The notes: generated from the letters alone by a model not told the origin. 64,000 bases of DNA from Clostridia bacterium (GCA_036260935.1 DATALQ010000013.1:3080-67079), one strand, 5' to 3'. Shown: positions 5,572 to 64,000, counted from the stretch's first letter. Numbers and translations: made by a program.

Positions 5572-7191
5572 TCAGAATTTCTTTATGTTCCTTTGCCTTA
5601 ATATTTCATAAGTGACGATAGCCCCTGCTACGGCAGCATTTAAAGAAGATATCTTCCCCAGCATCGGTATGTTGACGACAAAATCGCAGCTTTCGCGAAC
5701 GAGTTTTCCCATGCCCTCGCCTTCACTGCCAATAACCAGCGCGACAGGACCTGCCAGATCGCTTTCGAAATATGCCTTTTCACCCGTCGAATCCGTTCCT
5801 ACTACCCAGATATTCTCTTTTTTCAGGCTCTCGATGGTTTGAACTATATTTGTTACACGTGCAACCGGTACATATTCTATGGCGCCGGCCGAAGCTTTTG
5901 AAACGGCGGCTGTGAGCCCTATCGCACGCCGCTTCGGGATGATTATTCCATGAACGCCCGCAGCGTTTGCCGTTCTCAGAATGGAGCCGAGGTTGTATGG
6001 ATCGGTGAGTTCGTCAAGTATTATGATGAATGGCGGTCTGCCGCTTTCCTCAGCTATTTGAAGTATCTTTTCCACTTCGACATAATCCTTGGCGGCGGCG
6101 AGCGCAATGACTCCCTGGTGGGCATGTGTGACGGACATCTCGTCGAGCTTTCCCCTGTCGACTTCCTGTATAAGTATATGGTTCTGCCTGGCCATTGCTA
6201 TGATCTGATTTACCGAGCCTTCACGTTCGCCCTTTGAAACAAATATCTTGTTGATACTCCTGCCGGATTTCAGCGCTTCAATGACCGAGTTTCTTCCCTC
6301 CAGTTTGTCGAGGTCCTCCTGCATTCCTGCCTGATCGGCATCCTGCCTGTCAGAACGTGAAAACTTGTCTTCCGATGCGGACTTTTTCGCATTTGTATTA
6401 TACATGGAGGATGTATCGCGGCGGTTGGGTGAAAATCCTTTACGGCCAGGTGAAATCTCATTACGCTCGGATGAAATTTCTCTGTCTTCGGGCGACGCTG
6501 TACGGTAATTGGCGGCTGTACCCCTGTTATCCGATTCCGTATATTTTCTATTATAAGCCGGTGCATCTTTTTTGCTGTAAGCCGATGCGGTATCTTTTCT
6601 GCCGTAGGCTGATGCACCTTCTTTTTTACCGTAGCCCGATACGCCATCTTTCCTGCCGTAGGCCGATGCGCCTTCCTTCCTGCCGTAGCCCGATGCGCCA
6701 TCTTTCCTACCGTAAGCCGGAGCGCCTTCTTTCCTGCCGTATGCCGATGTGCTGTCTTTTCTAGCGTAGCTCGATGCGCCATCTTTCCTGCCGTAAGCCG
6801 GTGCGCCTTCTTTCCGATCGTAGCCCGAGCCGGTGTCTTTCCTGCCGTAGCTCGATGCGCCATCTTTCCTGCCATATGCCGATGCGCCGTCTTTCCTGTC
6901 GTAGCCCGATGCGCCGTCTTTCCTGCCGTAGCCCGATGCTCCGTCTTTCCTGCCGTAAGCCGGAGCCCCACCTGGTGCAGTTGTTCCACGCCTGCCGGGT
7001 GCTTCGCCTGTCCTATCGGACGGGCCGCGACTGCCCCGGGTATTGTCTGAAAACTCTCCAAAATCGTCTCTGCTCTTCGAATAAGAACCTGATCGGCCTT
7101 TTGAGCTTCCTCTGTTTTCGGGTCTACCTGGCTTTTTATCAAAACGACCGCCACGGTCGTTGGAGCCAAAATCGTTTTTCCTTTTTTCCAT
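5572..7191 (-). CDS. rlmB: 23S rRNA (guanosine-2'-O)-methyltransferase RlmB (SpoU/TrmH) with a ~290-aa repeat-rich N-terminal extension
   Basis: The C-terminal 250 aa is canonical RlmB (LEGRNSVIEALKSGR..., ILDELTDPYNLGSILRTANAAG, ALVIGSEGEGM, PMLGKISSLNAAVA). The position between mrnC and sigH is as in Bacillus. Confidence 0.9.
   Translation of the reverse strand: MEKRKNDFGSNDRGGRFDKKPGRPENRGSSKGRSGSYSKSRDDFGEFSDNTRGSRGPSDRTGEAPGRRGTTAPGGAPAYGRKDGASGYGRKDGASGYDRKDGASAYGRKDGASSYGRKDTGSGYDRKEGAPAYGRKDGASSYARKDSTSAYGRKEGAPAYGRKDGASGYGRKEGASAYGRKDGVSGYGKKEGASAYGRKDTASAYSKKDAPAYNRKYTESDNRGTAANYRTASPEDREISSERNEISPGRKGFSPNRRDTSSMYNTNAKKSASEDKFSRSDRQDADQAGMQEDLDKLEGRNSVIEALKSGRSINKIFVSKGEREGSVNQIIAMARQNHILIQEVDRGKLDEMSVTHAHQGVIALAAAKDYVEVEKILQIAEESGRPPFIIILDELTDPYNLGSILRTANAAGVHGIIIPKRRAIGLTAAVSKASAGAIEYVPVARVTNIVQTIESLKKENIWVVGTDSTGEKAYFESDLAGPVALVIGSEGEGMGKLVRESCDFVVNIPMLGKISSLNAAVAGAIVTYEILRQRNIKKF
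6549..6972 (-). repeat. About 15 tandem 27-bp units encoding (A/S)xYGRKDGAS inside rlmB
   Basis: Peptide run AYGRKDGASGYGRKDGASGYDRKDGASAYGRKDGASSYGRKD... All three minus and plus frames stay open here, which explains the spurious overlapping ORFs in the track. Confidence 0.9.
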
Positions 7192-7199
7192 GCGGTTAT

Positions 7200-7650
7200 A
7201 TACCCTTTCTGTTTTCTCCGATTTATTTCGGTTCTTCGGTTATTTTGGTTCTTGCGGTTCTACGGATCTTTCGGTTATTTTGGGTCCTTCTGGTTCTTTC
7301 TGGTTCTATCCGGTTGTTCGGATTCATTCGGTTATTTCATTTCTCTCTGGTTCATTTGATTCTTCCGGTTCTAATGGTTTTCCCCGATTCAATCAAGGTT
7401 CATTTCGGCTAATATGGTTGCTTCTGTTTTTCCGATTCTGTCTGGCTCTAGCCGGCTCTCGAATGCTTACAGTTATTTCATTTCTCACCAGTTCTTTCGG
7501 CTCTTCTGGTTCCTTCCGGCTCTAACCGATTATCGAATACTTCCGGTTATTCCATACTTCGCCGATTCCTTCCGGGTTTCCCGGTTCTTTCAGTTCTTTC
7601 AGATTTCTCGGATACTTTCGGATTACTTCCTATTTTCTTATTCTTGCAAG
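7200..7650. repeat. Degenerate 9-bp satellite (plus TTCGGTTCT, minus AGAACCGAA), non-coding, between mrnC and rlmB
   Basis: Runs such as ttcggttct tcggttatt ttggttctt gcggttcta cggatcttt cggttattt tgggtcctt ctggttctt repeat over about 450 bp. The track shows no minus-strand ORF of 60 aa or more. The plus ORFs here are F/S/G-rich artefacts. Confidence 0.8.
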
Positions 7651-7659
7651 TTTTATGGT

Positions 7660-9797: not shown

Positions 9798-11305
9798 TAT
9801 CGGTCACCTCCCGCAGCTATTGCGACAAACCGGTCTATCTCCTGCTTCGTACGTTTTTCCGTGACAGCTACGAGCCAGCAGTCCTTCTTCCCGGGATCAC
9901 GCCCCCCGGGATTGAGCTTCCCAGCATCGAACCTCCCGGTATCGAATCTCCTGGGATCGCTCCCCCCGAGATCGGCCCCCCCGAGATCGAATCTCCCGTG
10001 ATCAGACCTCCCGGAGTCGAGGCTCCCGGCATCGAACCTCCCGGCATCGAACCTCCCGAGTTCCAGTCCTCCGATAATGCCGTGCTTCAATAAACGTTCA
10101 TTGATCGCACTTACCGGCTCGTTCAAAGATTTCACGGTAAATTCCTTAAAAAACGGGGCGTCGCTGATCTTTACGAATTTTCCGGTTTCAAGCAGCCTGT
10201 CGCAGGCATAATGCGACTTCTGCAGGCAAAGGTTCGCCGCTTCCTTCAGGCCTTCCTTCCCCATGACGGATAGATAGGCCGCTGCTGCAAGCGCATTCAG
10301 CGCCTCATTGGAGCATATGTTCGAAACCGCCTTTTCTCTTCTTATATGTTGTTCTCTTGCCTGCAAGGTCAGAGTAAAACCTCTTCTGCCCTCGTGATCG
10401 GTGGTTTGGCCCACAATTCGGCCTGGCATTTTTCTGACAAGTTCCTTTTTTGCTGCCAGAAAACCGAGGTATGGTCCGCCGAAGCTAAGCGGATTCCCAA
10501 GCGACTGTCCTTCGCCTGTAACAATATCTACGCCGCACTCTCCCGGAGGTTTCAGCAGCGCAAGTGAAATCGGATCGACGCAGGCTATTGAAAGTGCTCC
10601 GTATTTGGCGGCAAGTTCTGCGACGCTCTTCATGTCTTCAATATATCCATAAAAGTTCGGAGATTGGATTATTATCGCAGCTATGTCGTCCGGACTCTCT
10701 GACAATATAGATTCCAGCCGGCCTTTATCGACAGTTTCGCTGACCGCTTCCACCTCAGTTATTTTTATTCCATTGAACCTTGAATAGCTGCGCAGGGTGT
10801 CCCTGTATTCAGGGTGAATGCCTGTAGCTGCCAGTACTCTGCTGCGACCTGTCGAGCGCACGGCCATGAGGGCTGCTTCTACAAGAGCCGTGGCGCCGTC
10901 ATACATCGAAGCGTTGGAAACATCCATCCCCGTAAGCCGACAAATCATAGTCTGGTACTCGAATATGGCCTGCAGCATTCCCTGGCTTATTTCAGGCTGG
11001 TATGGCGTATAAGCGGTGTAAAATTCGGGCTTGGAGATGATGTGTCCTACTATCGACGGAATGAAATGGTCGTAAGCTCCCGCTCCGAGGAAACAGGGAT
11101 AAGCCTCCGCATTTGCATTCCTTCCTGCCAGGGTCTTCATATGGGAAGCCAACTCAAGCTCCGCCATACTTTCAGGGAGCTCCAGACTCCCCTTGAATCT
11201 CAATTCCTCGGGAATATCCGAAAAAAGCTCCTCAGTACTCGAGAGCCCTATCGCATCCAGCATCCGGGCCCTGTCCTCTTCCGTATCCGGAATGTATCGG
11301 GACAT
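9797..11305 (-). CDS. gcvPA: Glycine dehydrogenase (decarboxylating) subunit 1, with a C-proximal repeat insertion
   Basis: [20 protein letters not shown]..., [39 protein letters not shown] start/stop overlap with gcvPB. Confidence 0.95.
9884..10066 (-). repeat. 15-bp tandem repeats encoding GRFDA-like pentapeptides inside gcvPA
   Basis: Plus strand repeats atcgaacctcccggc-like units. Peptide [58 protein letters not shown]. Confidence 0.85.
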
Positions 11306-11307
11306 TT

Positions 11308-11697: not shown

Positions 11698-11827
11698 CCT
11701 CCTCGATTGATTTATTTTCTGCTTCTATTATTTATTGCTTAAATCAGTTACTCCTTAGAAGTTTATTGCTTAAATACGGCACTCCTTAGAGATTTCTTGC
11801 TTAAGTATTACACTGTTCCGACGACCC

Positions 11828-13075
11828 CTAGCGATTCCTCACCCTTCTATAAAAAGGCAGCTCGACGATACGCGCAGAATACATGGCTTCGCGCACCTTT
11901 ATCCGGATAATATTGCCCTGTGCCATACCGGCTGCCTGGGCGTCGCCCGATTCCCTGGCGCCGGAGCCGCGATAACCGGCTGAATCGCCGATATCAATTT
12001 TTCCCCCATCCTTACCGGCGGCATTCTCCCTGGAAGTCAGGTCTATCAACGCAAGCCCCATGTTCTTTTTTAAGGTTGGGAAAAAGCCTCCGCTTGTCAC
12101 ATAACCCGCCTTACAATCGCCGATAGATACCTCGTAACCACTCCTTGGCACGGCCCGGTCGATCATCTCGAAGCCTGCGAGCCGGCTGCCGGGGTTTCCC
12201 GAAAGCTGCTCCGCCAAAGGTTTTCTTCCTATGAAATCACCCTTTTCGGGCTTTACGAACCTCTGAAGTCCCGCCATCACTGGAGTTATGACCTCGGACA
12301 ATTCCTGCCCGTACAACGGCATGGCCGATTCCAGTCTGAGCGTATCCCTGGCGCCCAATCCAGCCGGTTCAAGCCCGCATGGTCCTCCCTTTTCAATGAG
12401 GAGCTCCCACATTCTTGCGGCGTCCTCGGGCCTGCAGTATATTTCAAAACCGTCCTCCCCGGTATAACCCGACCTGGAAAGCATTACCTTAATACCTCCA
12501 ACTGTCGCGTCGGTCGCATAATGATAATATTTCAGCCGGTCGGGGTCATCAGTCATAAGCTGTCTCAATATGTTTACCGATTCGGGTCCCTGCAGGGCAA
12601 GCTGGGCAAAGTCCTCCGAACGGTCGGTAATGGTGACATTTCCTCTCTTGTTTTCCTTCAGCCATTCAAAATCCTTGGCAATATTAGCTGCATTCACCAC
12701 CAGCAAATACTTATCATCATTTAGCTTATAGACAATCAGATCGTCCACCGTACCACCGTCAGGATAGCACATCGGCGAATATACTGCCTTTCCGGGCTTC
12801 GCAGCGATATCGTTGGTCAACATCCACTGCAGATAATCCACTGCGTCCCTTCCGCTCACTTCCAGCTCTCCCATGTGGGAGACGTCGAACAATCCGGCTT
12901 TTGACCTGACACATTCATGTTCCTTCAAGATACCGCCGTATTGCACCGGGAGCAGCCAGCCGTGAAAATCCACGATCTTGCCGCCGGCAGCTACATGCTC
13001 GTCATACAGCGGCGTCTTCCGGGGTTCGTGCGGTTCGTTCGGTTCGTTCGGTTCGTGCAATTCCTGTTTCTCCAT
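11828..13075 (-). CDS. gcvT: Aminomethyltransferase (glycine cleavage T protein) with an N-terminal EPN repeat and a C-proximal insertion
   Basis: TPLYDEHVAAGGKIVDFHGWLLPVQY, GLFDVSHMGE, LALQGP. HEPNEPNEPHEP at 13021-13060 is encoded by the 9-bp unit GAACCGAAC. An extra about 40 aa lies at 11914-12043. Confidence 0.95.
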   Translation of the reverse strand: MEKQELHEPNEPNEPHEPRKTPLYDEHVAAGGKIVDFHGWLLPVQYGGILKEHECVRSKAGLFDVSHMGELEVSGRDAVDYLQWMLTNDIAAKPGKAVYSPMCYPDGGTVDDLIVYKLNDDKYLLVVNAANIAKDFEWLKENKRGNVTITDRSEDFAQLALQGPESVNILRQLMTDDPDRLKYYHYATDATVGGIKVMLSRSGYTGEDGFEIYCRPEDAARMWELLIEKGGPCGLEPAGLGARDTLRLESAMPLYGQELSEVITPVMAGLQRFVKPEKGDFIGRKPLAEQLSGNPGSRLAGFEMIDRAVPRSGYEVSIGDCKAGYVTSGGFFPTLKKNMGLALIDLTSRENAAGKDGGKIDIGDSAGYRGSGARESGDAQAAGMAQGNIIRIKVREAMYSARIVELPFYRRVRNR

Positions 13076-13231: not shown

Positions 13232-13428
13232 TCCGTAACCTGAGAGATTCGATCCGCCCGGACCTTATGTATTATCCCGCGCGGCCTTGCTCCTTCGGTG
13301 CTTTTTAAGCTTTTCAGAGTTTAGTCAGTCTGCAGCCCTTTTGCCTGAAAGATTCATTACGGGGTTGACGCCCCCGCAATTTACTTCTTCGGCTCCCGCC
13401 ATACTAACGGGACTCTCCTGCAGCCATC
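13228..13428 (-). promoter_or_regulatory. Tandem glycine riboswitch upstream of gcvT
   Basis: The minus strand carries both aptamer cores: caGGAGAGtcccg...gggaGCCGAAGaagtaa...tCAGGCAAAAGGgc and CTCTGaaaagc...gCACCGAAGGAGCAAggcc...CTCTCAGGt. Confidence 0.8.
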
Positions 13429-13459
13429 ATCCTGCAATATTAAGTTGTTCCGCTTTCTA

Positions 13460-14716
13460 TTATATTACTTTGCCTGCCGTTTTGCCACAGTTAAAGTTTC
13501 TGTTTGCTAGCCATTCGGCTAAGTCCAGCGTCATACGCCTGCAGCTGTCGGCAGAGATGCAACCGGCCGTCAGCACTGCCCCCACGTCCGAAATGAGTCC
13601 TGCTGATTCTGCCCCCGAGATATGTCCCGCGCCCACGTTCGAAACAAACCCTGCTGATTCTGCCTCCGAGATATATCCTGCGCCCAAGTCCGAAATAGAG
13701 CCAGTGGCGGACCCACCCGATACACAGACAGCTTCGCCAGCCTCCGAAACTGCGCCCGCACCCTCCTTCGGGATAGTCCCCGCGGCATCTGTGAGGCGCC
13801 TTGCCAGTTGTCCGGAATCATACGGACAGCCTTCGAATATCCCCGGCAGCGCCTCTATATATGCCTCTTCCATTGCATCCGAAAAAACCTTTGCCTCGCT
13901 TATAATACCATTCTCTATCTTGAGGCCTATTTGCACGCCGCCCCAAATAAACCTGTTTTCAAGCTCGACGTCGAACCCGGTTGTCTCGCCGTACCGCCAT
14001 TCCCACGAAGAATACCTGGAATACAGCTCCTCTATAGCCTCCCTGTTTTCCAGCCTGTCGCTTATGGAATATTCTACAGGCACAGTACAGCCGTAAATGC
14101 TGCGGAAGGACGAAATGAGCGCCTGCGCCGTTGTCTCGACTGTGAGTCCGGGCATTAATTCCGTCAGGTTCACTACTCTGGACTGCACTGACTTTATTCC
14201 CTTGGATTTCATTTTGTCCTCGGAGACCTGCAGATACCTTGCGAGCTTTTCGAAATCGGCGGATACCAGTATTGTACCGTGATGATATGCCCTGTCGCCC
14301 CTGATGTAGAACGCATTCCCGGAAAACTTGCGGCCGTCGGCGGTCAGATCGTTCCTGCCGCTCTTTTCAGCCTCGATCCCAAGGGCTTTAACGGCATTGA
14401 GGATCGTTTCAAGCTGTTTTTCCTGATTATATTCTTTTTTGTCCGCTATAAAGGTAAAATTGAGATTTCCAAGATCATGAAAGACCGCTCCTCCTCCGGA
14501 AAGCCTTCTGGCAAGCTTTCCGCCTTCGCTTTCCAGCAGTTCGGTCCTGCACTCGCGCCATGGATTCTGGTTACGGCCTATTACGACGGTATTTTGATTC
14601 TGCCAGAGGTATAAAATGCATTGCCCCGGCTCAACCCGCGTCAGCAGGAATTCCTCTACCGCCAGGTTCCACCAGGGATCCTTCGTACTAGTATGTATGA
14701 TTCGCGCACCGTTCAT
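13460..14716 (-). CDS. lplA: Lipoate-protein ligase A with a C-proximal repeat insertion
   Basis: WWNLAVEEFLL, VVIGRNQNPWRE, RRLSGGGAVFHDLGNLNFTF, SGRNDL...GRKFSGNAF. Confidence 0.9.
   Translation of the reverse strand: MNGARIIHTSTKDPWWNLAVEEFLLTRVEPGQCILYLWQNQNTVVIGRNQNPWRECRTELLESEGGKLARRLSGGGAVFHDLGNLNFTFIADKKEYNQEKQLETILNAVKALGIEAEKSGRNDLTADGRKFSGNAFYIRGDRAYHHGTILVSADFEKLARYLQVSEDKMKSKGIKSVQSRVVNLTELMPGLTVETTAQALISSFRSIYGCTVPVEYSISDRLENREAIEELYSRYSSWEWRYGETTGFDVELENRFIWGGVQIGLKIENGIISEAKVFSDAMEEAYIEALPGIFEGCPYDSGQLARRLTDAAGTIPKEGAGAVSEAGEAVCVSGGSATGSISDLGAGYISEAESAGFVSNVGAGHISGAESAGLISDVGAVLTAGCISADSCRRMTLDLAEWLANRNFNCGKTAGKVI
13564..13774 (-). repeat. About 51-bp tandem repeats encoding AESAGxISxVGAGxISG-like units inside lplA
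   Basis: Peptide SISDLGAGYISEAESAGFVSNVGAGHISGAESAGLISDVGAV. The nucleotide repeats are visible at 13570-13760. Confidence 0.8.
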
Positions 14717-30440: not shown

Positions 30441-31029
30441 GTCCTAATCCTTGTATAAATTGGTATTTGAACCATTTTAGATTATATTAATATAAATCTT
30501 ATAATTATGTAATATAAATGTCAATCAAATTTAAAGAAAAAGAGGATAATCTGTTAAGATCATCCTCTTACGATTTAAACCCGAAAAGCCGTTCCCCCAT
30601 ATTTTGACACCTAGCCCGATGCTAGGTGGGTGTCCTGCTGACAGCTGCAATCTTCCACCGCCGTTGCACATGTTCGAGACATATGACGGAATTAACTTGT
30701 GGCCTGATATATCCTGTCAAACGCCAGACTCCCTTATGAAAAATGTAGGTTCAAAATAATAGGTTTATCCGAGCATTTCAGGTCGTACGCTATTCAATTG
30801 TCTTTGGCCTTGAAAGCCATCGATACTGCGCGATCCCAAGTTTCGTCCGGATCGCTTTCTGTGTTCTTATTATAGCACCGACGAATACCGTTAACAACAA
30901 AGAGTAATCACATTTAAGCCTGTAATGCGCTTTCTTATTCAATCTGCCTTCGATTATCTGCGTTAATCAAACAAACAGTATCAGTTGTAAGGGAATTCAT
31001 GGCAACACAGCCATTTGCCCTGTTTTGCC

Positions 31030-53466: not shown

Positions 53467-56118
53467 TTACCTCCCATAAAACCAGTCTGCGAATTCGTCG
53501 ATCTCACCAATCAAGTTTTCATATCTCGGTTTTATCTTTAAAGCTTCAGTTTCTTGTACTTTTTCGTTTTCTAATGTCTCTACATGAAATTGCCGAATAA
53601 GCGTTTTGATTTCAGCGGCTTTTTCAGCGATCTCTCTCTGTAGTTCAGGGCCGGCTGGTTCGAGGGGAAGCTGTTCGAGCATGGCTTTGTTTATTGCCAG
53701 GTATCCTCCGGCCAGATGCTTTTCATGGAATTGTTCGCCGATATACCCCGCCATGAATCTGCTGTTGAGAAGGCCTAGCAAGAAAAGCGGATCGTATCCG
53801 CCAAAACCATATAATGCATATGCGCCTACGCCCAACGCAAGCGGATCCTGGCAGTAGTCGGCTTCCAACTCCCTGGTCAGGCCCGCAATAACGATCTTTT
53901 CATCACACCATAGCTTCCATTTGCTTTGGGCGATATCTCTGTTCTTGGATACAAAGGCCTTTTTATAGGTTTTTCCCATATATCTGATATTCTCGAACCC
54001 GACGCAGTATTTATCGATCGAACCGCTTACGACGAAGGGAATTGCGCCGTCTATGCGCTCTTCCGTGATACATGCTGCAATGGCTCTTGCCTGGAAGCCC
54101 GCCGTTCCCGACGCAAACCTGAGGCCGTGTTCCTTGAAAGTTCCATAGGTTTTGAAGCTTCGGGTCTTTCTGATAAACGTACAGCTGTGGTACCCCGAAC
54201 GCGTGCAGCCCTGGCACTCCTCGGAAGCCATGCCGTATTCCGCGTATTCACCGCCTGGTGCGCCTTTATTGCCTGCGACTATAACAGGATAAACTCCTGC
54301 ACTATGGAAAATATCGGCGTCGGAAACGCTGTAGCTTTGTCTCAGGCCATTCTCTTTTAGATATTCGAGCACCGGTGAGGCATAATGCGAGGACAGCAGG
54401 CTGTTTGGGACTATCCAGCAGTAAACGCCTTTATCGTTGGTTTGTCGTATCCCCTCCAGCAAAAATGCGGCGTATATGTCGAAGGATCCTCTCAGCAAAG
54501 GGTGCATCGACTTGAGCGAACGCCTCAGCCCGGCATATCTGGCCCCTTCTATGGCTGATATGTACGGCGGGTTGCCTATGACTATATCGAAGCCGCCCTT
54601 CTTTTTAACAGTTTCCATAAAGAGCGGGCTGTTATCGAATATCTCAGTACTGCGGCCCAGGCTGCTGCCGGATATAATATTTCCGAAAATGTAGGCTGCC
54701 AGAGGTTCCTGAGGGTTTGGGAGTTCCCCAGGACCCGGGAGTTCCGGGAGTCTCGCTAGGTCTGGGAGTTCCTGAGGGTTCGGGAGTACCGGGTGGTCCG
54801 ACAACTCCCGGAGACCATTTTCGTATGCTGAGGCGAGGGCGCACCAAAGCCTGAGTCTGGTTATCCTGACAGCATCCTCGTCGATATCCATTGCATATAT
54901 ACAGTTCACTACAGTGTAAAGCATCAGGCGGTATGCGTTACTTTCGGACAAGTCTGCCGGAGAACGGGTTGAGACAGCAGCACGGACCCTCACTATTTCC
55001 TTCAGTATACCGAGTACGAAAGCACCGGAGCCTGCTGCTGGGTCGAATATCCTTACCTGCCGGAGAGCGTCATCTATCTTTCCGAAGCTATGTAGAACAG
55101 ATGGAGAAAGCCCGGAAACAGATCCGTTTGCCAAATCATCTCCGCCATCTCCAGAAAGGCAGTCGCTATCCAGAAACGAACGGCAGTCCTCATAAGGTAT
55201 CTCCGCAGCGTTGGATATATAATGGGCGAGGCTTTCACGACACATGAAGCTGACGATTTCCGAAGGAGTATAAAAGGTACCCTTATTTTTCCTGACGTTT
55301 GTATCCAATCTGCTTTCAAAGAGATCCCCCAGCATCTCGGGATCTATTGCCAGTATCCGGTCATACGGCTCGCTTTCGCTCATTCTGAAACCCGGCAGCT
55401 TTACAAGGGCCGAAAAATCAAGGGTGTTCGTATATCTCCGGTTGAATTTCTTCAATACTTCCTTTTTGAATGAATTCAAACTGAACGCTTTTTCAAGGTC
55501 CTTAATAGACCTCTGTTTCTTTATAAGCAAAAGCTTCAACAGTAGTTTCCGGGCCGCAGTTCTTGTGATACCCGTTATTAGCGATACTTCGGGCCCGATC
55601 TCCTTTACTGCTTCAACTTCGGACCCGACGTTCTTTACTGCTGTAGCTTCGGACCCGATGTCCTTTACTGCCACAGCTTCAGTTCCGCCGCCCCCGCCAA
55701 GGATGTACGAAACCCTGCTCAGCTTGAAGTTGTTCAGGGCACGGGTATCGCCAGGTGCTTTATTGTCAGGATTAAGCCTGATCAATGACAGCTTCCATTC
55801 CTTTACACCGTCTATGTAGAATGCTGCAATGGCGGCCTCGCACCTGTTAGTTACAAGAACCTCTTCTATCTGTTTTCTTTCCAGTGAACCATATCGGACA
55901 TCATTGGTCTTTCGCCCGGAATTGACCGCCAGAATTGCCACAGCCGTACCTTCACTGCATATGAATCTGTTTAGGACGGCGAAATCAGATGCGAATCCCG
56001 TGGTACGAAGGAATTCGCCGTTATCGGCCGACTCCGGGCAGTAAAATAATCTGGTAGAAAATTTTATAAATCTGCCAAGATCGAAAGGTTTTTCAACGAC
56101 CTCATCAAGAAGTTTCAT
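53467..56118 (-). CDS. Eco57I/TaqI-type (gamma-class) N6-adenine DNA methyltransferase, ~883 aa, no partner nuclease gene
   Basis: Motif I VRIFDPAAGSGAFVLG (about 55021-55050), motif IV IVIGNPPYI (about 54562-54573) and a TaqI-C-like specificity region. Start set to ATG 56118 behind GGGGGTCGGGG, 20 nt after the dut stop. The track's 989-aa version overlaps dut. Confidence 0.8.
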   Translation of the reverse strand: MKLLDEVVEKPFDLGRFIKFSTRLFYCPESADNGEFLRTTGFASDFAVLNRFICSEGTAVAILAVNSGRKTNDVRYGSLERKQIEEVLVTNRCEAAIAAFYIDGVKEWKLSLIRLNPDNKAPGDTRALNNFKLSRVSYILGGGGGTEAVAVKDIGSEATAVKNVGSEVEAVKEIGPEVSLITGITRTAARKLLLKLLLIKKQRSIKDLEKAFSLNSFKKEVLKKFNRRYTNTLDFSALVKLPGFRMSESEPYDRILAIDPEMLGDLFESRLDTNVRKNKGTFYTPSEIVSFMCRESLAHYISNAAEIPYEDCRSFLDSDCLSGDGGDDLANGSVSGLSPSVLHSFGKIDDALRQVRIFDPAAGSGAFVLGILKEIVRVRAAVSTRSPADLSESNAYRLMLYTVVNCIYAMDIDEDAVRITRLRLWCALASAYENGLRELSDHPVLPNPQELPDLARLPELPGPGELPNPQEPLAAYIFGNIISGSSLGRSTEIFDNSPLFMETVKKKGGFDIVIGNPPYISAIEGARYAGLRRSLKSMHPLLRGSFDIYAAFLLEGIRQTNDKGVYCWIVPNSLLSSHYASPVLEYLKENGLRQSYSVSDADIFHSAGVYPVIVAGNKGAPGGEYAEYGMASEECQGCTRSGYHSCTFIRKTRSFKTYGTFKEHGLRFASGTAGFQARAIAACITEERIDGAIPFVVSGSIDKYCVGFENIRYMGKTYKKAFVSKNRDIAQSKWKLWCDEKIVIAGLTRELEADYCQDPLALGVGAYALYGFGGYDPLFLLGLLNSRFMAGYIGEQFHEKHLAGGYLAINKAMLEQLPLEPAGPELQREIAEKAAEIKTLIRQFHVETLENEKVQETEALKIKPRYENLIGEIDEFADWFYGR

Positions 56119-56137: not shown

Positions 56138-56758
56138 TCAGCCGCGGCCCGAATGTCCGAAACCGCCGCCCCTGTCAGTTCCAATCCCGCGCGGATCAGG
56201 ATGTTGAATGAAGTTTGCGCGTTTATATTCATTGAATACCATCTGCGCAATTCTGTCGCCCTTCTTAATATATATGGTGCCATATGGATTGCCAAGCCCG
56301 TCGATGTAGATCTTTTGTCCGGCGACGGCCAGCGATGCGGTGGGCAGAACCTTTCCCTCCCGCGCGAGATACTCCAGCAGTTCGATCTCCCTGTAGTTCC
56401 GGTACAGGCCCTCCAATATACCCGGATCAGCCGCAATCTGATACGGCAGGTTGGCTATGTTGTACGTATTTTGCAATATGACTCCAACCGTATCCCTGTA
56501 ATCGCTGTCTATAGTGCCTGGGCCATTGGGTATCCTGAGCTCTGTTTTCAGGGATAACCCGCTCCTGGGTCTTATTTGCGCCTCATATTCAGGGTCTATC
56601 GCCATGCTGAAATCGAGCGGCATTATTTTGGTTTCACCGGGTCTGACAGCCATGTCCTGTGTGGCGAAAAGGTCGCAGCCCGCGGAATTGGTCGAGGCGT
56701 AAAGCGGAATTCTCCCCTCTCCTCCGACCTTGATATATACGTTGATTTCATTTTTCAT
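56138..56758 (-). CDS. dut: dUTP diphosphatase (trimeric type) with a ~55-60-aa internal insertion
   Basis: Motifs SAGCDL, RPRSGL, GTIDSDYRD, GDRIAQMVF, GGGFGHSG. The extra segment lies between motifs III and IV. Confidence 0.85.
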   Translation of the reverse strand: MKNEINVYIKVGGEGRIPLYASTNSAGCDLFATQDMAVRPGETKIMPLDFSMAIDPEYEAQIRPRSGLSLKTELRIPNGPGTIDSDYRDTVGVILQNTYNIANLPYQIAADPGILEGLYRNYREIELLEYLAREGKVLPTASLAVAGQKIYIDGLGNPYGTIYIKKGDRIAQMVFNEYKRANFIQHPDPRGIGTDRGGGFGHSGRG

Positions 56759-56862
56759 AAGCTATACCCCCAGGTAGTCTGTTTGAATTTTTGTATGAAT
56801 TGTTTGTTTGAATTTCAGTTTGGATCCTCTGCCCGAGAATTCCCCGAGCTGACCGAAGGCCG

Positions 56863-59688
56863 TCATACCCCTCTGAAATAATGCCCCTTCGTATAACCCG
56901 GTCCCGGCTGCATGTTCGCCACACGTTTACCCGCCTGTCTGTCTTCGGCTTCCTGCCGTGCCGCCCTGTAAAGCCTGATAAGTTCCTTTATCCGCTCAGG
57001 CCCCTCATCCCATATATAAAGCCTTAGCATTCCTACTCCGGAATCGGTAAGATTGTTTACGATATCGGGTACAAAAAGTACGTCTGAATTCAGTATTATA
57101 CTCCTGCAATCAGTCCTGTCACAAAGCACAGGAAACTCAGAGCCTTTTCTGTCCCTGAGGCTGTATCCCTCCTTACTGCAAGCGCCGCTGCAACCGCGGC
57201 CGGCAGTGTACCCTCCTTCGATACATCCCACGGGGCAATATTCGCTTATCATCAACGGTATTCTGCCGTAAACCGCGGCCTCCGCGACAATATGCCTACC
57301 GTTGTCGGCACTCACAGCAGCCAAGGCCCTGCCGATGCAGGTCGCCTGCTGAAGCGTCAGTTCCGCGGAGAGTGCAATGCTGTCAAGCCCATACTTTGCC
57401 GCCTCGGTAAACGAATCGGTATTGAAAATGTTGAGTGAAATGTCTCCCGCCAGCCTAAGTCCGGACGGAACGAATTTACGTATCGTGCCTATATTTCCGC
57501 ATAGTACGCCCTCTATCAAGGATTTGGGTCCTATTCCCACCCCGGCTTCGGGAGCATCGTCCGGATTCCGTTCGTCTTCGTATCCGTCGTCCGGATTCCG
57601 TTCATCTTCGTATCCGTCATCCGAATACCGTCCACCTTCGTGTCCGCCGCCTGTTATACGGCTCAGAAACCTTTCGATCAATTTATCATAATTGCCTCTC
57701 GTGATTGCGGGCAGCCAGGCAAAAACCTCGGTCCCTGCTGCCTGCAGAGCTTTGGCGGTATTTTGGAAGCCTGGCTTTCCAATAGAATTAAAAGGCAGAT
57801 AGACTCTGTCGGCCCCTAAAGAAGAATATTCCAGTTCCTTGTCCCACTTGTAAAAGTAAAGGGATAAAGCAGGACGACCGACCGAAATTTGTCCTGACCG
57901 TACCTGCGTTATATGCGGCAACGAACATCCCACACAGCCGGCAGGCCGCGCCGCACCGTCGCTGTCGATCGCCTGATTGACGCTCTCCAGGCTGCGCCTG
58001 TCTGGATAGCGTTCTGCCCTAATTTTATAGAGCTCAACGAGCGCCTGTCTCCTGACCTCGTTTATTTCACTTACCGGGATTGTCAGTCCAGAGGCGATTT
58101 CAATCTTCAGTTCCGTAAAAACAAAAGGCGTCGATCCTGTCCTGTATAGCTGCTCCCTCAGTCTCTCCTCCGAAAGAGGCTTGTTCAAAGCTTCTTCGGG
58201 ATTCATAGTTCCCTTGGCTGTGGCGCTATGTCTCCCGGAGTCCCATACACGGAGAATAAGCGGCCGTCCGTGCTGTAAAACCGCCTCGCCGGCAATTTTC
58301 ACACGCTTTACAAGCTTACCCGAGAAGGTTTCACGGGCTTGTTTGTTCAACGTTATATCCAAAGTCTTATAAACTCCGAAGCCAGGTGCGATCCTGCCCT
58401 TGAATTCCCCGATCACCGCAAGGTCGCCCTTTTTAGCCATTTTTGCGTTCTGCTTCCCAAGCGTTATAGAGGTAATCGTACCTCCGGGGCTGTCAGTGCC
58501 CCCGGTCCATATCTCTACACCGTCTCCCATGTGCAGATCCCATTCCAGCCTTATCGTCACAGTTTTCGTACGGCTGTCATACGCCTGTACTTTCCCAAGA
58601 TAGATACCGCTGTTATTGGGTTTTTCATAGCTCATCATGTCGGCGCCTGTTTTCCCCATCATATAACCTGTGGAAAAACCGCCCCTGTTGTATATCTGAA
58701 GGATATCGTGCCTGTCATTTTCCTCCACACCGGGCAGAGGCCCATTTCCGGCGCCTTTATGCCCGATGGCAAGATCCAGGTACTTTCTGTACAGCCGGAC
58801 AACAGTAGCTACATATTCGGGGCTCTTCATCCTGCCCTCGATTTTAAGCGAACGTATGCCAGAATCTGCGATATCAGCCATGAACTCGAGCGTACACATG
58901 TCTTTAGGGCTCATAAGGTATCCGGAGCGTTCTGTTAAGGTGCGATTCCGGTATTCATTTATCCGCGTGCCGCCCGAACTACCTTCGCCCGAACTGTCCC
59001 CGCCGGATCTGCCACCGCCCGGCCTACTACCGGGTAAAGCCGCCAACTGGTAGGGCAGTCTGCAGGGCTGCGCGCATTTTCCGCGGTTGCCGCTTCTGCC
59101 GCCTATCATGCTGCTCATGAGGCACTGCCCGGAGTAGCAGACGCAGAGCGCTCCGTGCACAAAGACCTCTATTTCGAGTTTCGTATTATGCGCTATATCG
59201 GAAATTTCCTTCAAGGGTAGTTCTCTTGCAAGCACAGCCCTGCTGAAGCCCATGTCTTCGAGCGTACGCACTCCCGCCAGGTCATAGACCGTCATCTGTG
59301 TACTGCCGTGCAGGGGCACATCCGGCATCACTTTTCTGAGAGCGGCGGCAAGACCCAGATCCTGTACAATAATACCGTCGATACCTGCGTACCTCGCTTC
59401 AGCGGCAAATTCGACCGCCTGTTTTATTTCATCGTCGGAAACGAGAGTATTCAGCGTCAGATAAAGGCTAACGCCGCGCGCGTGGGCATAAAGCAGCTCT
59501 TCGCGGAGCATTTCGGCGTCGAAATTGTCCGCATTCTCCCTTGCGTTAAAAGACCTGCCGCCAAGGTAGACCGCATCCGCTCCGTTTTCCACTGCTGCAT
59601 GCAGAGCGTCGCGGTTTCCCGCAGGAGCAAGAAGTTCGATCATTTTTCCGGATTTGTTCAATTCGTTATATGTCCCGGGTCTGTCCAT
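56863..59688 (-). CDS. Large U32-family peptidase (PrtC/collagenase-like) with low-complexity insertions
   Basis: ELLAPAGN start region and the U32 signature EVFVHGALCVCYSGQCLMSSMIGGRSGNRGKCAQPCR. Confidence 0.85.
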   Translation of the reverse strand: MDRPGTYNELNKSGKMIELLAPAGNRDALHAAVENGADAVYLGGRSFNARENADNFDAEMLREELLYAHARGVSLYLTLNTLVSDDEIKQAVEFAAEARYAGIDGIIVQDLGLAAALRKVMPDVPLHGSTQMTVYDLAGVRTLEDMGFSRAVLARELPLKEISDIAHNTKLEIEVFVHGALCVCYSGQCLMSSMIGGRSGNRGKCAQPCRLPYQLAALPGSRPGGGRSGGDSSGEGSSGGTRINEYRNRTLTERSGYLMSPKDMCTLEFMADIADSGIRSLKIEGRMKSPEYVATVVRLYRKYLDLAIGHKGAGNGPLPGVEENDRHDILQIYNRGGFSTGYMMGKTGADMMSYEKPNNSGIYLGKVQAYDSRTKTVTIRLEWDLHMGDGVEIWTGGTDSPGGTITSITLGKQNAKMAKKGDLAVIGEFKGRIAPGFGVYKTLDITLNKQARETFSGKLVKRVKIAGEAVLQHGRPLILRVWDSGRHSATAKGTMNPEEALNKPLSEERLREQLYRTGSTPFVFTELKIEIASGLTIPVSEINEVRRQALVELYKIRAERYPDRRSLESVNQAIDSDGAARPAGCVGCSLPHITQVRSGQISVGRPALSLYFYKWDKELEYSSLGADRVYLPFNSIGKPGFQNTAKALQAAGTEVFAWLPAITRGNYDKLIERFLSRITGGGHEGGRYSDDGYEDERNPDDGYEDERNPDDAPEAGVGIGPKSLIEGVLCGNIGTIRKFVPSGLRLAGDISLNIFNTDSFTEAAKYGLDSIALSAELTLQQATCIGRALAAVSADNGRHIVAEAAVYGRIPLMISEYCPVGCIEGGYTAGRGCSGACSKEGYSLRDRKGSEFPVLCDRTDCRSIILNSDVLFVPDIVNNLTDSGVGMLRLYIWDEGPERIKELIRLYRAARQEAEDRQAGKRVANMQPGPGYTKGHYFRGV

Positions 59689-60433: not shown

Positions 60434-61882
60434 TTATTTGCTGCTTTCTTTTACGGCATCATTCGCGCTTTCCTTTACCTCTTCCTTGCCGCTCGCATAC
60501 TTTCTAAGAATATCGGTAATGTCGACGCCCGTGAGGCCTTTAACTGTTTCAGGCAACTGAGCAATTACACCCGTAATATCCTTTGTCAGCTTCGAAGCGC
60601 CGGAATCGCCTATCATGACAATTTTTTCCGTCTTCGAGAGAGGCTGTGCCACTGCTGATGCTATGTCCGGCAGCTTTTCGATGACCATCTGCGCGATAGC
60701 CGCATCGTTGAACTGCTTGTAAGCTTCTGCCTTCTTGGCCAGGGCTGCTGCTTCAGCTTCACCCTTTGCTTTGATGATCTCCGCTTCCGCAAGACCTGCC
60801 GCCTTTATTGCTTCCGCCTTTGCAAGACCTTCGGCTTTAATCGCGTAGGATTGCGCTTCGGCGTCCTTGGACTTCTTTACCTTGTCGGCTTCAGCGGAAA
60901 CTTCGGTCTTGAACCTGTCGGCTTCGGCAGGCTTCCTGATCATTGCATCGAGTTCCTTCTCTTTTCTCAGAGCTTCCTGTTCCTGCAGCTCGATTTCTTT
61001 CTGTTTCTTGACGATCTCGACCTGCATTGCTTCCTTCTGAACTTCCTGCTGTATGACGAACTTCTTCTTGTCGTATGAAAGATCGGCCTCGGCTTTTCTT
61101 TCATTGATGGCAGCCTGGTAATCGGCGACCTTCATTTCCTTGTCCCTGTTCGCTTCCGCAACCTTGGTCTCTGCGAGGTACTTGGCTGTCTGTCCTGCCT
61201 GCATGGCCTCGGCGCTCTTTATATCGGCGTCCCTCTTGGCTTCAGCCTGGCCAATGACGGCATCCCTCTGAACCCTTGCGATCTGCGCCTTACCGAGACT
61301 TTCCAGGTAACCGTTCTTATCGGCGATTTCCCTGATCGTAAAGGATATGATCTTGAGACCCATATTTGCGAGGTCACCGGCTGCAAGCTCCTGCACCTTT
61401 TGTGCGAATGCGTCCCTGTTCTGGTTGATCTCTTCTACCGTAAGGTTTCCGACTATCGAACGCAGATGACCTTCAAGGGTCTGCGTAGCGATTCGTTTGA
61501 TCTCATCCTCTTTCAGGCTCAGGAACTGCTCTGCAGCAGTTGCTATTGCTTCCTGGCTCGAATCGATCTTTACCTGTGCAATACCATCGACTGAAACCTG
61601 CACGCCCTGGGAAGTATATGCGCTTGAATTGACGTCGAGAGGCATAATCCTTAGTGATATTGTCTTCGAAATTTCCAGTACCGGCAGAACAAAAGTCGCT
61701 CCGCCCCTGACTATCCTGAACCCTACTACCTGACCATTGGGAAGCCTCTTCTTGCGTCCCGAGACTATCAATGCCTCATCCGGTCCCACCTTGACGTATC
61801 TGCCGACAAAAACAGATACCAGTATGAAAAGGATTACGACTAGAACTAAACCAATTATTACCGGCAACGCGTATGAACCCAT
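60434..61882 (-). CDS. Flotillin (SPFH/band-7) family protein, FloT/YuaG-like
   Basis: N-terminal TM, SPFH domain, long Ala/Glu/Lys flotillin repeats (AEAEIIKAKGEAEAAALAKKAEAYKQ). Confidence 0.9.
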   Translation of the reverse strand: MGSYALPVIIGLVLVVILFILVSVFVGRYVKVGPDEALIVSGRKKRLPNGQVVGFRIVRGGATFVLPVLEISKTISLRIMPLDVNSSAYTSQGVQVSVDGIAQVKIDSSQEAIATAAEQFLSLKEDEIKRIATQTLEGHLRSIVGNLTVEEINQNRDAFAQKVQELAAGDLANMGLKIISFTIREIADKNGYLESLGKAQIARVQRDAVIGQAEAKRDADIKSAEAMQAGQTAKYLAETKVAEANRDKEMKVADYQAAINERKAEADLSYDKKKFVIQQEVQKEAMQVEIVKKQKEIELQEQEALRKEKELDAMIRKPAEADRFKTEVSAEADKVKKSKDAEAQSYAIKAEGLAKAEAIKAAGLAEAEIIKAKGEAEAAALAKKAEAYKQFNDAAIAQMVIEKLPDIASAVAQPLSKTEKIVMIGDSGASKLTKDITGVIAQLPETVKGLTGVDITDILRKYASGKEEVKESANDAVKESSK

Positions 61883-61900
61883 TACAAATCCTCCCTTAAA

Positions 61901-62602
61901 TTAATTATTTCCAGCATCTCTGCGTGGTTTTCCGTTCTCTTTGTTTTCCTGTTCCTCGTAGTTAATTTCGATATCGTCCAGCGTCAGCTTCTGCTGAACT
62001 ACAGCAACATTTCCCGCAATCTCCCTTATTATGACTGCCGCGCCTCTTTTGATCGGGCTCCCCTCCATGGATCTGGCGGATTGAGTATACCTGATCCCGT
62101 TGGCAACATAGGCTATCTCGCCGAGCCCTTTTTCCGGCACTGGTGTTATTACTTCGGCTTCGGTTCCAGCAAGCTCGTCAAGAGAGTAAATCGAATTGGA
62201 CTGCGAGCCGTACATGAACTTGACGATCCCGAAAAACAGCGCCGCTCCTATGGCTCCTGCAACCCCTAATGAAATGATGGTACTCATCAGCCCGGAAATA
62301 CCGAAGCCCTTCATGGAAATAATACCCACTGCACCGAAGGTACTGATCGCGCTCGCAATAACAAGCGGATTGAAAGGTGACGGGGTATCGGAGGAATCTG
62401 ATGCATGCTGTGCGCCGGCGGTATGCCCCGCGTCGGCGACATGGCCCGCGCCTGCTCCTGCCGCATGGTCGAAACCTCCGGCATGGTCCATTCCGACCGC
62501 ATGATCGAGGCCTCCTGCATGATCGAAGCTGCCGATATGATCTGCCCCGCCCGCGTGACCTACTCCGTGATCACCTCCATGATCCCCGAGGATCAGCGAC
62601 AA
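61901..62602 (-). CDS. NfeD-family membrane protein (YuaF-like) with a His/Gly/Asp repeat
   Basis: TM helices plus a C-terminal OB-like GEIAYVANGIRYTQSARS...GAAVIIREI. Immediately upstream of the flotillin gene. The frame stays open upstream, and a CTG at 62651-62653 sits 7 nt after GGGAGG. Confidence 0.75.
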   Translation of the reverse strand: MSLILGDHGGDHGVGHAGGADHIGSFDHAGGLDHAVGMDHAGGFDHAAGAGAGHVADAGHTAGAQHASDSSDTPSPFNPLVIASAISTFGAVGIISMKGFGISGLMSTIISLGVAGAIGAALFFGIVKFMYGSQSNSIYSLDELAGTEAEVITPVPEKGLGEIAYVANGIRYTQSARSMEGSPIKRGAAVIIREIAGNVAVVQQKLTLDDIEINYEEQENKENGKPRRDAGNN

Positions 62603-62883
62603 AACAGAGTAAAATAAGCCGAATGCAAGGCAACCGATAAATACGTAAAGCAGAAAATCACCTCCCGCAATAAAACTGCCAAGATTATTTTACCATATCC
62701 GCCCGGTCATTGAAATGGGATGCAAATCTGTACAATATACGGTGCATGTTTTGTATAAGTCTTATCAATCGAAAGCACGCTAAAGCTATAATCCTGATCG
62801 CCGCATAAAAGCAGACAAGGCCGGCCGTGCAAACTCTGTCCGGCAAGCCTTGGTCAAAAACATACATTATCGCAACCGTTATA

Positions 62884-64000
62884 TCACTCCTGATTCAGAT
62901 TCAATATCTTCCCATCGTCAGGGTTTATATAAACGAGCCAGTAACCGAACGCACCATAGCGCTGCTTGCTCCCATCGGCCTGTACCCATTTGCTCAGCTC
63001 CCCGAACGGTTTCCGGTCTACCATATGCATTCCGGGAACTCCGCACACAACGAATTTTTTGCCGTCCCTTCTGGTAAATATGCCGACTATAAGGTGGCGG
63101 TACTTGTAATGAGCCAGCATCACCGCCGGATTGAACATGAGAGGCGATCTGATATTGTTTTGATAAAGGATATTATTGAGGTTAACAGGGTTGGTTATCT
63201 TCCACCATAAGTAATCGCTACGTTTGCTATGGAAGGGATCGTTAGCTTCAAAATTACCGTCCATGATGGCCTTGAGCCTTGACAGATCACCTGCCGGCTT
63301 CACCTGCTCGGTCGGCGTTCCCCCATGGACACGGCATGCCTCGCATGGACTGGCATTACCCGCTTCAGCATTTAAAATGGCTCCGCAGATATTTCCGTTC
63401 AGGTACAGGCACCCTGTATTCACACTGCCCGGACCGTCGCGGTAAATATATTCGGTCTGCGAGGCTGCCCTATCCTGTGCCGGTTCAGTAACCGGCGGCT
63501 GCGCACTGTCCGGAGACACCGCCGTGCCATCGTCAGCCTGTGCTGCCTGTACTTCCTCCGGCTGTTCTACCCTGGCCGACTGTTCTTCACGCTCCAGATC
63601 TTCATACTCCTGTCCTTGCTCTGCCGACAACTGCCCCGATTCCGCGGACTCCCCAGCCGGTTCCTGATACTCCTGTCCTTGCTCTGTCGGCAACTGCCCC
63701 GATTCCTCGGGCTCCCCAGCTGGTTCCTGATATTCCTGTCCCTGCTCTGCCGGCAACTGCCCCGATTTCTCGGGCTCCCCAGCAGATTTCTGATATTCCT
63801 GCGCCTGCTCTGCCGGTAACTGCCCCTTCTCCTCAGGCACCTGTGCCGGTTCCTGATACTTCTGTCCCTGCCCATCTCCAAAAGGCTGACCGGGTTCATA
63901 GGGCTGTATCTGCTGGGGATATGGCTGGTAAGGGCTGTACATCTGAGGCTGCGGAGCGAACATCTGGTATGGGTTATATGTATCTAAAGGCTGTTCCTGA
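62884..64000 (-). CDS. Hypothetical protein: Pro/Gln/Glu-rich repeats plus a conserved C-terminal globular domain (5' end off the right edge)
   Basis: The frame is open upstream of the track's ATG to position 64000 (QEQPLDTYNPYQM...). C-domain YLWWKITNP...RHLIVGIFTRRDGKKFVVCGVPG...FGYWLVYINPDDGKI. Confidence 0.5.
   Translation of the reverse strand, partial: QEQPLDTYNPYQMFAPQPQMYSPYQPYPQQIQPYEPGQPFGDGQGQKYQEPAQVPEEKGQLPAEQAQEYQKSAGEPEKSGQLPAEQGQEYQEPAGEPEESGQLPTEQGQEYQEPAGESAESGQLSAEQGQEYEDLEREEQSARVEQPEEVQAAQADDGTAVSPDSAQPPVTEPAQDRAASQTEYIYRDGPGSVNTGCLYLNGNICGAILNAEAGNASPCEACRVHGGTPTEQVKPAGDLSRLKAIMDGNFEANDPFHSKRSDYLWWKITNPVNLNNILYQNNIRSPLMFNPAVMLAHYKYRHLIVGIFTRRDGKKFVVCGVPGMHMVDRKPFGELSKWVQADGSKQRYGAFGYWLVYINPDDGKILNLNQE
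63606..63850 (-). repeat. About four 60-bp tandem repeats encoding SGQLPAEQGQEYQEPAGEPE units
   Basis: Near-identical blocks ctgccccgattc..cgg.ctccccagc.ggttcctgata.tcctgtcc.tgctctg.cg.caa. Confidence 0.85.

Follow-up and report, generated by a model that had tools for sequence, protein, structure and literature searches.

In-frame tandem repeats in core-enzyme genes of an uncultured Clostridia bacterium: probable coding minisatellites filtered for reading frame and solubility

How does tandemly repeated sequence come to lie within the genes of conserved enzymes, and does it serve them? The question is raised by 64,000 nucleotides (nt) of DNA from an organism deposited as Clostridia bacterium (GCA_036260935.1 DATALQ010000013.1:3080-67079; the whole stretch is hereafter called the window), in which head-to-tail repeats occupy the genes of the 23S rRNA methyltransferase RlmB, the glycine-cleavage proteins GcvPA and GcvT, the lipoate ligase LplA, a U32 peptidase and others. 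A preliminary description of this DNA had pointed to at least eight such genes. The repeats are present in the genes of this genome and are well delimited. With a probability of about three in four, they are coding minisatellites and low-complexity segments that arose by slipped-strand expansion under a double filter, for reading frame and for solubility. Processes of this kind are known, and what stands out here is their density in core enzymes; no new molecular system is revealed.

The window is a stretch of a 125-kb contig of a metagenome-assembled genome built from short reads, with proteins deposited at NCBI as HEX2945047-HEX2945097. Pfam searches identified rlmB (SpoU_sub_bind and SpoU_methylase), gcvPA, gcvPB, gcvT, lplA, flotillin, an NfeD-like protein, a U32 peptidase of the DUF3656 type and an N6 methyltransferase of the Eco57I/TaqI_C type. 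Non-overlapping arrays with a period of at least 9 and a score of at least 50 were called with Tandem Repeats Finder (TRF). Fourteen arrays were found, covering 2.55% of the bases (principal features in Table 1). They consist of head-to-tail units in 2.3-14.8 copies with 59-92% matches, and the GC content of the repeat DNA is 0.54-0.68 vs 0.50-0.55 in the host genes. All eight in-frame arrays previously listed, with units said to be multiples of 3, were recovered by TRF on the minus strand inside open reading frames (ORFs). The unit sizes given for rlmB (27 bp), gcvT (9 bp), gcvPA (15 bp), lplA (51 bp) and U32 (30 bp) agreed with those measured, and those given for the methyltransferase (33 bp) and the last ORF (60 bp) were replaced by 30 and 63 bp. 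Four arrays were absent from that list, namely a weak one at the flotillin C-terminus and the three intergenic arrays of Table 1. The description of the host genes as canonical housekeeping or central-metabolism genes does not suit the last ORF or the Eco57I-like methyltransferase.

Table 1. Positions of repeat arrays, inserts and their host features in the window (aa, amino acids).
Feature	Position	Strand	Period (bp)	Basis
rlmB, 539 aa: 290-aa predicted disordered N-terminal tail and SpoU methylase core (residues 297-528)	5572-7191	-		Pfam, AlphaFold2
RlmB tail array, 15 units, (S/P)(A/G)YGRKDGA, net charge +13	6553-6963	-	27	TRF 6564-6962, 27 bp x 14.8
Non-coding mrnC-rlmB spacer, 468 nt, purine-rich degenerate minisatellite (GAACCGAAA-like)	7192-7659	-	9	Stops in all three frames
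Intergenic array	7223-7373		9/28/56	TRF
gcvPA insert, 11 diverged units (GRFDA-like), residues 417-471	9893-10057	-	15	TRF 9889-10058, 15 bp x 11.3
Intergenic tandem duplication, gcvT-gcvH spacer, 2.4 copies	11730-11804		31	TRF
gcvT C-terminal barrel insert, 38 aa, Gly/Ala/Asp-rich, no clear repeat	11915-12028	-		1YX2 alignment
gcvT N-terminal HEP/NEP expansion	13031-13057	-	9	TRF 13023-13058, 9 bp x 4
lplA insert, 73 aa, with array of 2.3 copies (13581-13695)	13562-13780	-	51	TRF; precedes last helix of C-terminal domain
Eco57I/TaqI_C-type N6 methyltransferase, 883 aa from M107 of long ORF	53467-56118	-		Pfam; gene call on Logan unitig L088
Methyltransferase insert 2, ELPxP-type units	54703-54795	-	9	TRF 54735-54793, score 39
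Methyltransferase insert 1, 3 units (EAxAVKxIGS)	55585-55683	-	30	TRF 55587-55680, 30 bp x 3.1
Intergenic array	56780-56815		13	TRF
U32 insert 2, GYEDERNPDD x 2-3, net charge -11	57535-57651	-	30	TRF 57546-57646
U32 insert 1, Gly/Ser tract, inside U32 domain	58963-59022	-	15	TRF 58970-59021
Weak flotillin C-terminal array, 2.3 copies	60438-60493	-	24	TRF score 56
nfeD His/Asp/Gly-rich GxDHAG repeat	62399-62587	-	18	TRF 62412-62527
Last-ORF array, 21-aa acidic Q/E/P units, DUF7922-like protein	63601-63873	-	63	TRF 63604-63871, 63 bp x 4.3

The nearest relatives in GTDB by GcvPB identity were L002 (85%) and L003, L004 and L024 (77-78%); L089 and L090 are further sister genomes. The gene order lplA-gcvT-gcvH-gcvPA-gcvPB-mrnC-rlmB-sigH is kept in all six of these genomes. 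The order of the 53-64 kb cluster (a DUF7922-like gene, nfeD, flotillin, zapA, U32, dut, methyltransferase, response regulator and pfk) is likewise shared with relatives.

The period of an array depends on where it lies. In the window it is divisible by 3 in 11/11 arrays inside genes and in 0/3 intergenic arrays. When a crude classifier, which required the frame to be open over the array and 150 nt on each side, was applied to the window and the sister loci together, the ratio of periods divisible by 3 to other periods was 23:1 for coding and 8:10 for non-coding arrays (Fisher P = 2.5e-4). Because this classifier misplaces arrays near gene ends (such as those of gcvPA and the gcvT N-terminus), the arrays of the window were sorted by hand. 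Multiples of 3 only within genes, with free periods outside them, indicate that duplications arise in both compartments and that only those preserving the frame last in genes. We infer that, at a loop, a terminus or an inter-domain linker, 9-63 bp of native sequence would be doubled in tandem by slipped-strand mispairing in replication or by unequal exchange. Expansions that break the frame would then be purged by selection, so that only multiples of 3 persist inside genes, and the surviving arrays would drift by point mutation and go on gaining and losing units. A phase-variable contingency locus was considered and ruled out, the genic units being 9-63 bp long and all divisible by 3, not frame-shifting units of 1-8 bp.

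Intergenic duplications were also found in the relatives L002, L005, L082 and L090. The duplication in the gcvT-gcvH spacer of the window contains an AAGGAG motif, and tandem duplications occur in or adjoining that spacer in L002 and L090 as well. The mrnC-rlmB spacer of the window is several hundred nucleotides long (Table 1) vs at most ~70 nt in L002, L003 and L024, and may represent an expanded rlmB 5' leader or a decayed coding repeat.

The growth of an array from native sequence can be followed at gcvPA. The 55-aa segment is missing in every relative aligned. At the same site a single related pentapeptide is present in L090 (GRFDP, in LEL-GRFDP-EKKDCW) and in L002 (ERLDP), three near-perfect 15-bp units (ERFNP) are present in L089, and 11 diverged units followed by conserved sequence are present in the window. 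This series of 1, 1, 3 and 11 copies across four species indicates that two of them independently expanded one and the same native block of pentapeptide codons. An alignment with Thermus GcvPA (1WYT), which lacks the insert, breaks at the insert, at about residue 403 of 438. In an AlphaFold2 model built from a 74-sequence alignment, residues 422-468 had predicted local distance difference test (pLDDT) values of 26-40 between flanks of 80-95. A second hot spot follows residue 201 of GcvPA, where 23 of the 120 best homologs carry unrelated Gly/Ser/Ala-rich inserts.

Within the gcvPA array, the G run at 9901-9908 is G6 in the window and G7 in a Logan assembly of the same sample. The G7 form would truncate GcvPA to 469 aa, and the difference reflects either a mistake in assembling the homopolymer or true variation within the repeat. 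A 469-aa GcvPA in the same 90% cluster was considered as a copy-number variant and rejected, since it is the identical sequence with one extra G that causes a frameshift. The G6 version of the window retains the frame and the conserved C-terminus.

A comparable seed was seen at the gcvT N-terminus, where alignments place a single HEP in L090 and L002 against four HEP/NEP units in the window; for lplA, U32 and the methyltransferase no local seed was resolved. GcvT also contains a C-terminal barrel insert that had been overlooked in the preliminary description and that falls between residues 338 and 341 of Bacillus subtilis GcvT (1YX2). The inserts in this hairpin are 38, ~20, ~58 and ~10 aa long in four sister species, with unrelated sequences, and have a length of 0 in the more distant L024 and L007. 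Upstream of gcvT, Rfam detected a single glycine riboswitch aptamer (13323-13430, minus strand). GcvPB is unmodified in the window and lacks a repeat in L002, and it carries a 52-75-aa N-terminal Gln/Thr-rich repeat (QTQQTRQAQQIQQ...) in L089 (9392-11068) and L090 (9359-10966). Only the window has the lplA insert; in L089 and L090 LplA has 340 aa, the L002 ortholog also lacks the insert, and in L024 an unrelated insert of ~30 aa occupies the same site. The alignment with Escherichia coli LplA (1X2G) stops at about residue 309 of 337, which is the position of the insert.

Inserts were thus placed, by alignment to orthologs and to 1WYT, 1X2G and 1YX2, at loops, termini or linkers, in agreement with the earlier proposal that they lie near termini or between motifs. 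The accompanying proposal, that these enzymes normally lack such segments, held for gcvPA, lplA, gcvT, U32 and the methyltransferase, in which the segments are absent or different in the closest sister species. It did not hold for nfeD, whose repeat occurs in three sister species, or for the RlmB tail, which occurs in 112/112 homologs.

The insertion of many segments into conserved genes of one genome has a superficial likeness to the Rickettsia palindromic elements, which are said to have inserted in frame into protein genes and which likewise add surface segments to many of them. In-frame mobile elements of that kind, or imported foreign DNA, are nevertheless an extremely improbable source. 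The Rickettsia elements form one dispersed palindromic family, whereas each insert here is unique, non-palindromic and locally derived, with units that come from flanking native sequence. Within the window no similarity was detected among the inserts and no further copies of them were found, and a search at and around the inserts gave no inverted repeats that could serve as palindromic arms. Inserts that are unrelated, single-copy and non-palindromic exclude a dispersed or palindromic mobile element. An intein or other self-contained domain was also rejected, as Pfam showed only host-protein domains and no domain in the inserts.

A further concern is that the repeats were mis-assembled from short reads and are absent or untranslated in the organism, as the source is a short-read metagenome, the two assemblies differ by one G in the homopolymer inside the gcvPA array, and the Logan unitig L088 ends near the nfeD repeat. 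This too is very improbable. An independent assembly of sample SRR12844108, the Logan unitig L001 (8,496 bp), corresponds to window positions 12763-4269 and agrees with it over 8.5 kb save for that single base. The units are 15-35% diverged, which allows them to be assembled; every array keeps its frame and is followed by conserved protein sequence; and orthologous arrays were found in independent samples and species.

The second cluster of repeats, at 53-64 kb, shows the same turnover. Insert 1 of the methyltransferase is missing in L082, L084, L085 and L086, and the inserts of this enzyme differ in sequence and site from species to species. The long methyltransferase ORF, which begins at 56436, overlaps dut, and the real start is Met107 (56118). 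No nuclease partner accompanies the enzyme, and the dut-methyltransferase-response regulator-pfk context is kept in all relatives examined, so that it looks like a vertically inherited orphan methyltransferase and not a mobile restriction-modification system. Homologs of the U32 peptidase have a base length of about 835-850 aa, and in the wider clade of the window unrelated repeats in the same four or five hot spots bring the length to 850-998 aa. Two of these hot spots are the sites of the window's own inserts, after residue 226 (insert 1) and after residue 680 (insert 2), where homologs carry unrelated inserts, many of them at the first site. The C-terminal tail of flotillin is also variable in relatives.

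The nfeD repeat, in contrast to recent insertions, is little changed in L082, L084 and L086, which indicates that it predates these species and is an older feature. The GTG start and first transmembrane helix (VIFLLYVF...) of nfeD in sister species are out of frame in the window at ~62600-62680 (minus strand), probably through one base in a T-run. The window ORF starts at a TTG at 62602, by homopolymer error or real N-terminal truncation. Unitig L088 (9.5 kb) ends at about window position 61930, just past the flotillin start codon and ~470 bp short of the nfeD repeat, which may reflect assembly difficulty near that repeat.

The last ORF (62884-64000, minus strand) stays open up to base 64000 and continues beyond the window; it represents the C-terminal half of a 611-739-aa protein. 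Its orthologs begin with a conserved domain of ~200 aa (weak DUF7922 match) and end with a Cys-containing domain that is highly conserved, the two being joined by a hypervariable repeat linker. The array of the window lies in this middle region, which is hypervariable in every relative and carries different repeats there (KPE, PQ-rich and ENIPEN units). The product is a repeat protein and does not represent a housekeeping enzyme that has gained an insertion.

Length changes between close strains were also observed. Assembly pairs of relatives at 99.7-99.8% identity differed in three places only, namely a 48-bp in-frame step in a KPEI array (L086 vs L087), a 45-bp in-frame step in a methyltransferase ELxELx array at the site of the window's ELPxP units (L084 vs L085), and one 109-bp intergenic indel. 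Together with the gcvPA seed, the 45- and 48-bp steps support the earlier suggestion of an active, lineage-specific generation of repeats, in the sense that repeat birth and copy-number change are ongoing in the clade.

Pooled, the inserts contain 20% Gly (2.2-fold enriched), are also enriched in Ala, Asp, Glu, Pro, Gln and His, and are depleted 3-10-fold in Ile, Leu, Met, Phe, Trp and Cys. Their net charge ranges from -17 to 0 for all but the basic RlmB array. Expansions prone to aggregation would be purged, and segments rich in Gly, Ala, Asp, Glu and Pro, poor in hydrophobic residues and predicted to be disordered, would stay. No excess of diversity at the third codon position was found in arrays other than that of RlmB, and the other inserts are probably neutral or tolerated. 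The preliminary description had offered tolerance or selection for disordered tails; a signature of selection appeared in the RlmB array and in no other.

In RlmB, conservation with L002, L089 and L090 extends over ~60 aa at either end of the tail, and the central array is swapped, with a 9-aa unit in the window vs a 14-aa unit in those genomes. In the AlphaFold2 model, residues 1-297 had pLDDT values of 38-52 and almost no secondary structure except a short helix at 284-295, and the core beyond was well folded. Diversity among the units at codon positions 1, 2 and 3 was 0.15, 0.18 and 0.34 (Mann-Whitney P = 0.008), with Tyr3 and Lys6 invariant in 15/15 units, and the tail appears to be under purifying selection. 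A suspected higher-order period of 81 bp in this array was marginal (identity 0.688 at offset 81 vs 0.677 at offset 27).

The tail was then surveyed in the 120 best homologs, in 112 of which the start motif of the catalytic core could be located. It was at least 56 aa long in 112/112 (median 88 aa, maximum 288 aa) and net basic in 111/112. Arg and Lys made up 25% of the tails vs 11.5% of the core, and hydrophobic residues 7% vs 30%. Tandem repeats were present in 51/112 tails, with lineage-specific units such as GYRGAASENRGPAS, DRYGKPAG, DRKPYG and RPKYTPSDG. A basic tail that is present clade-wide and keeps its composition while its sequence turns over indicates a selected, repeatedly rebuilt module and not an accidental insertion. 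The array would thus remodel a clade-wide disordered tail, basic and rich in Tyr, Arg, Lys and Gly, whose composition would be held by selection. The NCBI call by the Prokaryotic Genome Annotation Pipeline (PGAP) gives RlmB as 277 aa from Met263. It leaves out 262 in-frame codons upstream, which specify the basic repeat tail with its two ends conserved in sister species, and the deposited annotation is probably truncated.

Disordered RNA-binding tails of the RGG/YG type occur on RNA helicases, RNase E and FUS-like proteins. The RlmB tail is similarly basic, repetitive, predicted to be disordered and rich in Gly, Arg, Lys and Tyr, sits on an RNA-modifying enzyme, and is conserved in composition and not in sequence. 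Its units (YGRKDGA, DRYGKPAG, DRKPYG) also carry Asp or Glu and are not canonical RGG boxes. The tail would most likely help the 23S rRNA methyltransferase to bind RNA. A literature search on N-terminal extensions of RlmB returned nothing relevant.

Could the disordered segments have been favored throughout, with slippage supplying only the raw material? Acidic Gly-rich segments of cytosolic enzymes might be positively selected, whether as bristles that keep the enzymes soluble, as a protection against stress or desiccation, or as a means of forming condensates. All inserts are indeed poor in hydrophobic residues, with a net charge of zero or below except in RlmB, the same sites are hit repeatedly across species, the RlmB tail combines purifying selection with a clade-wide composition, and the nfeD repeat is conserved. 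This explanation is nonetheless rather unlikely for the set as a whole. No third-position excess was found outside RlmB, sister species live without the gcvPA and lplA inserts, the sequences at one site are unrelated between species, similar duplications, with periods not divisible by 3, occur in intergenic DNA, and a filter for solubility alone would give the same composition.

Slippage followed by the two filters accounts for the form of the arrays, and their number is a separate matter. Against a control set of 1.43 Mb of more distant Bacillota loci, ~20 kb each and fetched around gcvPB, in which 64 kb contained on average 2.8 arrays and repeats made up 0.36% of bases, the window has a ~5-fold excess of arrays and a ~7-fold excess of repeat bases (Poisson P about 2e-6), a figure that carries a selection bias in that the window was picked for having repeats. 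Among single control loci of ~20 kb the 95th percentile was 13.6 arrays per 64 kb, and the loci of sister species had about 13 per 64 kb in a sample biased by its being fetched around repeat-bearing genes. An entropy-based low-complexity scan of all ORFs gave 3.3% of residues in the window vs 2.4% in the control, a signal mostly of transmembrane helices and coiled coils; the scan was uninformative because these dominate it and repeat units of 9-21 aa are not low in entropy.

The distribution is uneven. The arrays had been described as a window-wide pattern, which proved incorrect, as they are confined to 5.5-14.7 kb and 53.4-64 kb and TRF found none in the central 39 kb, intergenic DNA included. 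This array-free region encodes cysS, a hexapeptide-repeat acetyltransferase (probably cysE), ugd (UDP-glucose dehydrogenase), an epimerase, ogg, yebC, pfk and others. The remaining Rfam matches in the window were a 6S RNA (30574-30787) and a tRNA (4274-4344), both on the minus strand.

A mutator-like state of the lineage might underlie the enrichment. Replication or repair might be altered, for example through a polymerase prone to slippage or through poor mismatch repair or exonuclease function, or the effective population size might be very small; either would raise the birth or fixation of duplications throughout the genome, as a cause of the enrichment and not an alternative to slippage. 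The excess over the control, the high density at sister loci, the intergenic duplications in the window and in four relatives and the strain-level length steps are all in keeping with such a state. The proposal is still doubtful, given the empty 39 kb of the same window, the biased sampling of the sister loci, and a few unrelated control loci with similar local density.

Several points weigh against the account of slippage and filtering, or limit it. It leaves the enrichment of the clade unexplained, for which mutational bias, relaxed selection and positive selection are all possible causes. The clustering of the arrays and the empty central region are not predicted by a uniform mutational process, and to explain them one has to assume that tolerance differs from gene to gene or that a regional factor, for instance GC content or expression, plays a part. 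The control loci are centered on one operon and do not form a genome-wide null. Copy-number change was seen only in relatives, and only from short-read assemblies, and not for the arrays of the window genome. Finally, the constant acidic and Gly bias could reflect positive selection and not a solubility filter only.

The genome of Legionella pneumophila is about 3.4 Mb, and the count of intragenic repeats in it amounts to roughly 2 per 64 kb. That count, 95 intragenic tandem repeats in 85 ORFs of one genome, is similar in density to our control rate, and the Legionella loci resemble those of the window in having head-to-tail units that are multiples of 3 within ORFs, with copy numbers that vary among strains (PMC2639597). 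Such variable-number tandem repeats of pathogens are concentrated in surface, virulence and uncharacterized genes, whereas the arrays of the window lie in glycine-cleavage enzymes, a lipoate ligase, an rRNA methyltransferase and a U32 protease and are ~5-fold denser. Low-complexity regions of prokaryotes in general have been described as fast-evolving and transient products, chiefly of replication slippage, that mutation and purifying selection erode in time, with housekeeping functions falling largely in the category of "no LCR, no paralogy", where LCR stands for low-complexity region (Persi et al. 2023, PMC10120016). The segments described here would likewise be products of fast, species-specific slippage, but they depart from the housekeeping rule in several single-copy core enzymes, and this clade is in that respect somewhat unusual. 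The preliminary description had regarded the phenomenon as undescribed; slippage-grown low-complexity regions in prokaryotic genes are known (PMC10120016, PMC2639597), and what survives of that claim is that housekeeping functions are said usually to lack them. A further parallel is offered by the housekeeping proteins of Plasmodium, which carry lineage-specific, disordered, repeat-derived loop insertions that are polymorphic and neutral or weakly selected (PMC3140889, PMC5762703). The Plasmodium inserts are rich in Asn and Lys and belong to a eukaryote of extreme AT bias, whereas the present organism is a bacterium of ~47% GC with GC-rich inserts that encode Gly, Asp, Glu and Ala.

The process would span a genus-level clade of uncultured Clostridia, striking the same core enzymes and leaving each species with its own set of inserts. 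As a tentative extension, for which we would claim less than even odds by some distance, this clade of soil and wetland bacteria may have a heritably raised birth and turnover of in-frame minisatellites. GcvPA, GcvPB, GcvT, LplA, the U32 protease and RlmB would then be accordions with species-specific disordered segments, a bacterial counterpart of the Plasmodium case, and the RlmB tail would be an RNA-binding sticker-spacer module continually rebuilt from new units.

For annotation, the finding means that gene callers truncate such proteins, as with the 277 aa rather than 539 aa called for RlmB by PGAP, that homopolymers within arrays produce spurious frameshifts between assemblies, and that ortholog length alone misleads in this group. 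If the enrichment holds genome-wide, these bacteria would offer a natural system for the birth of disordered regions from short native seeds, and would show how such regions are filtered by reading frame and solubility and, in cases such as the RlmB tail, now and then put to use.

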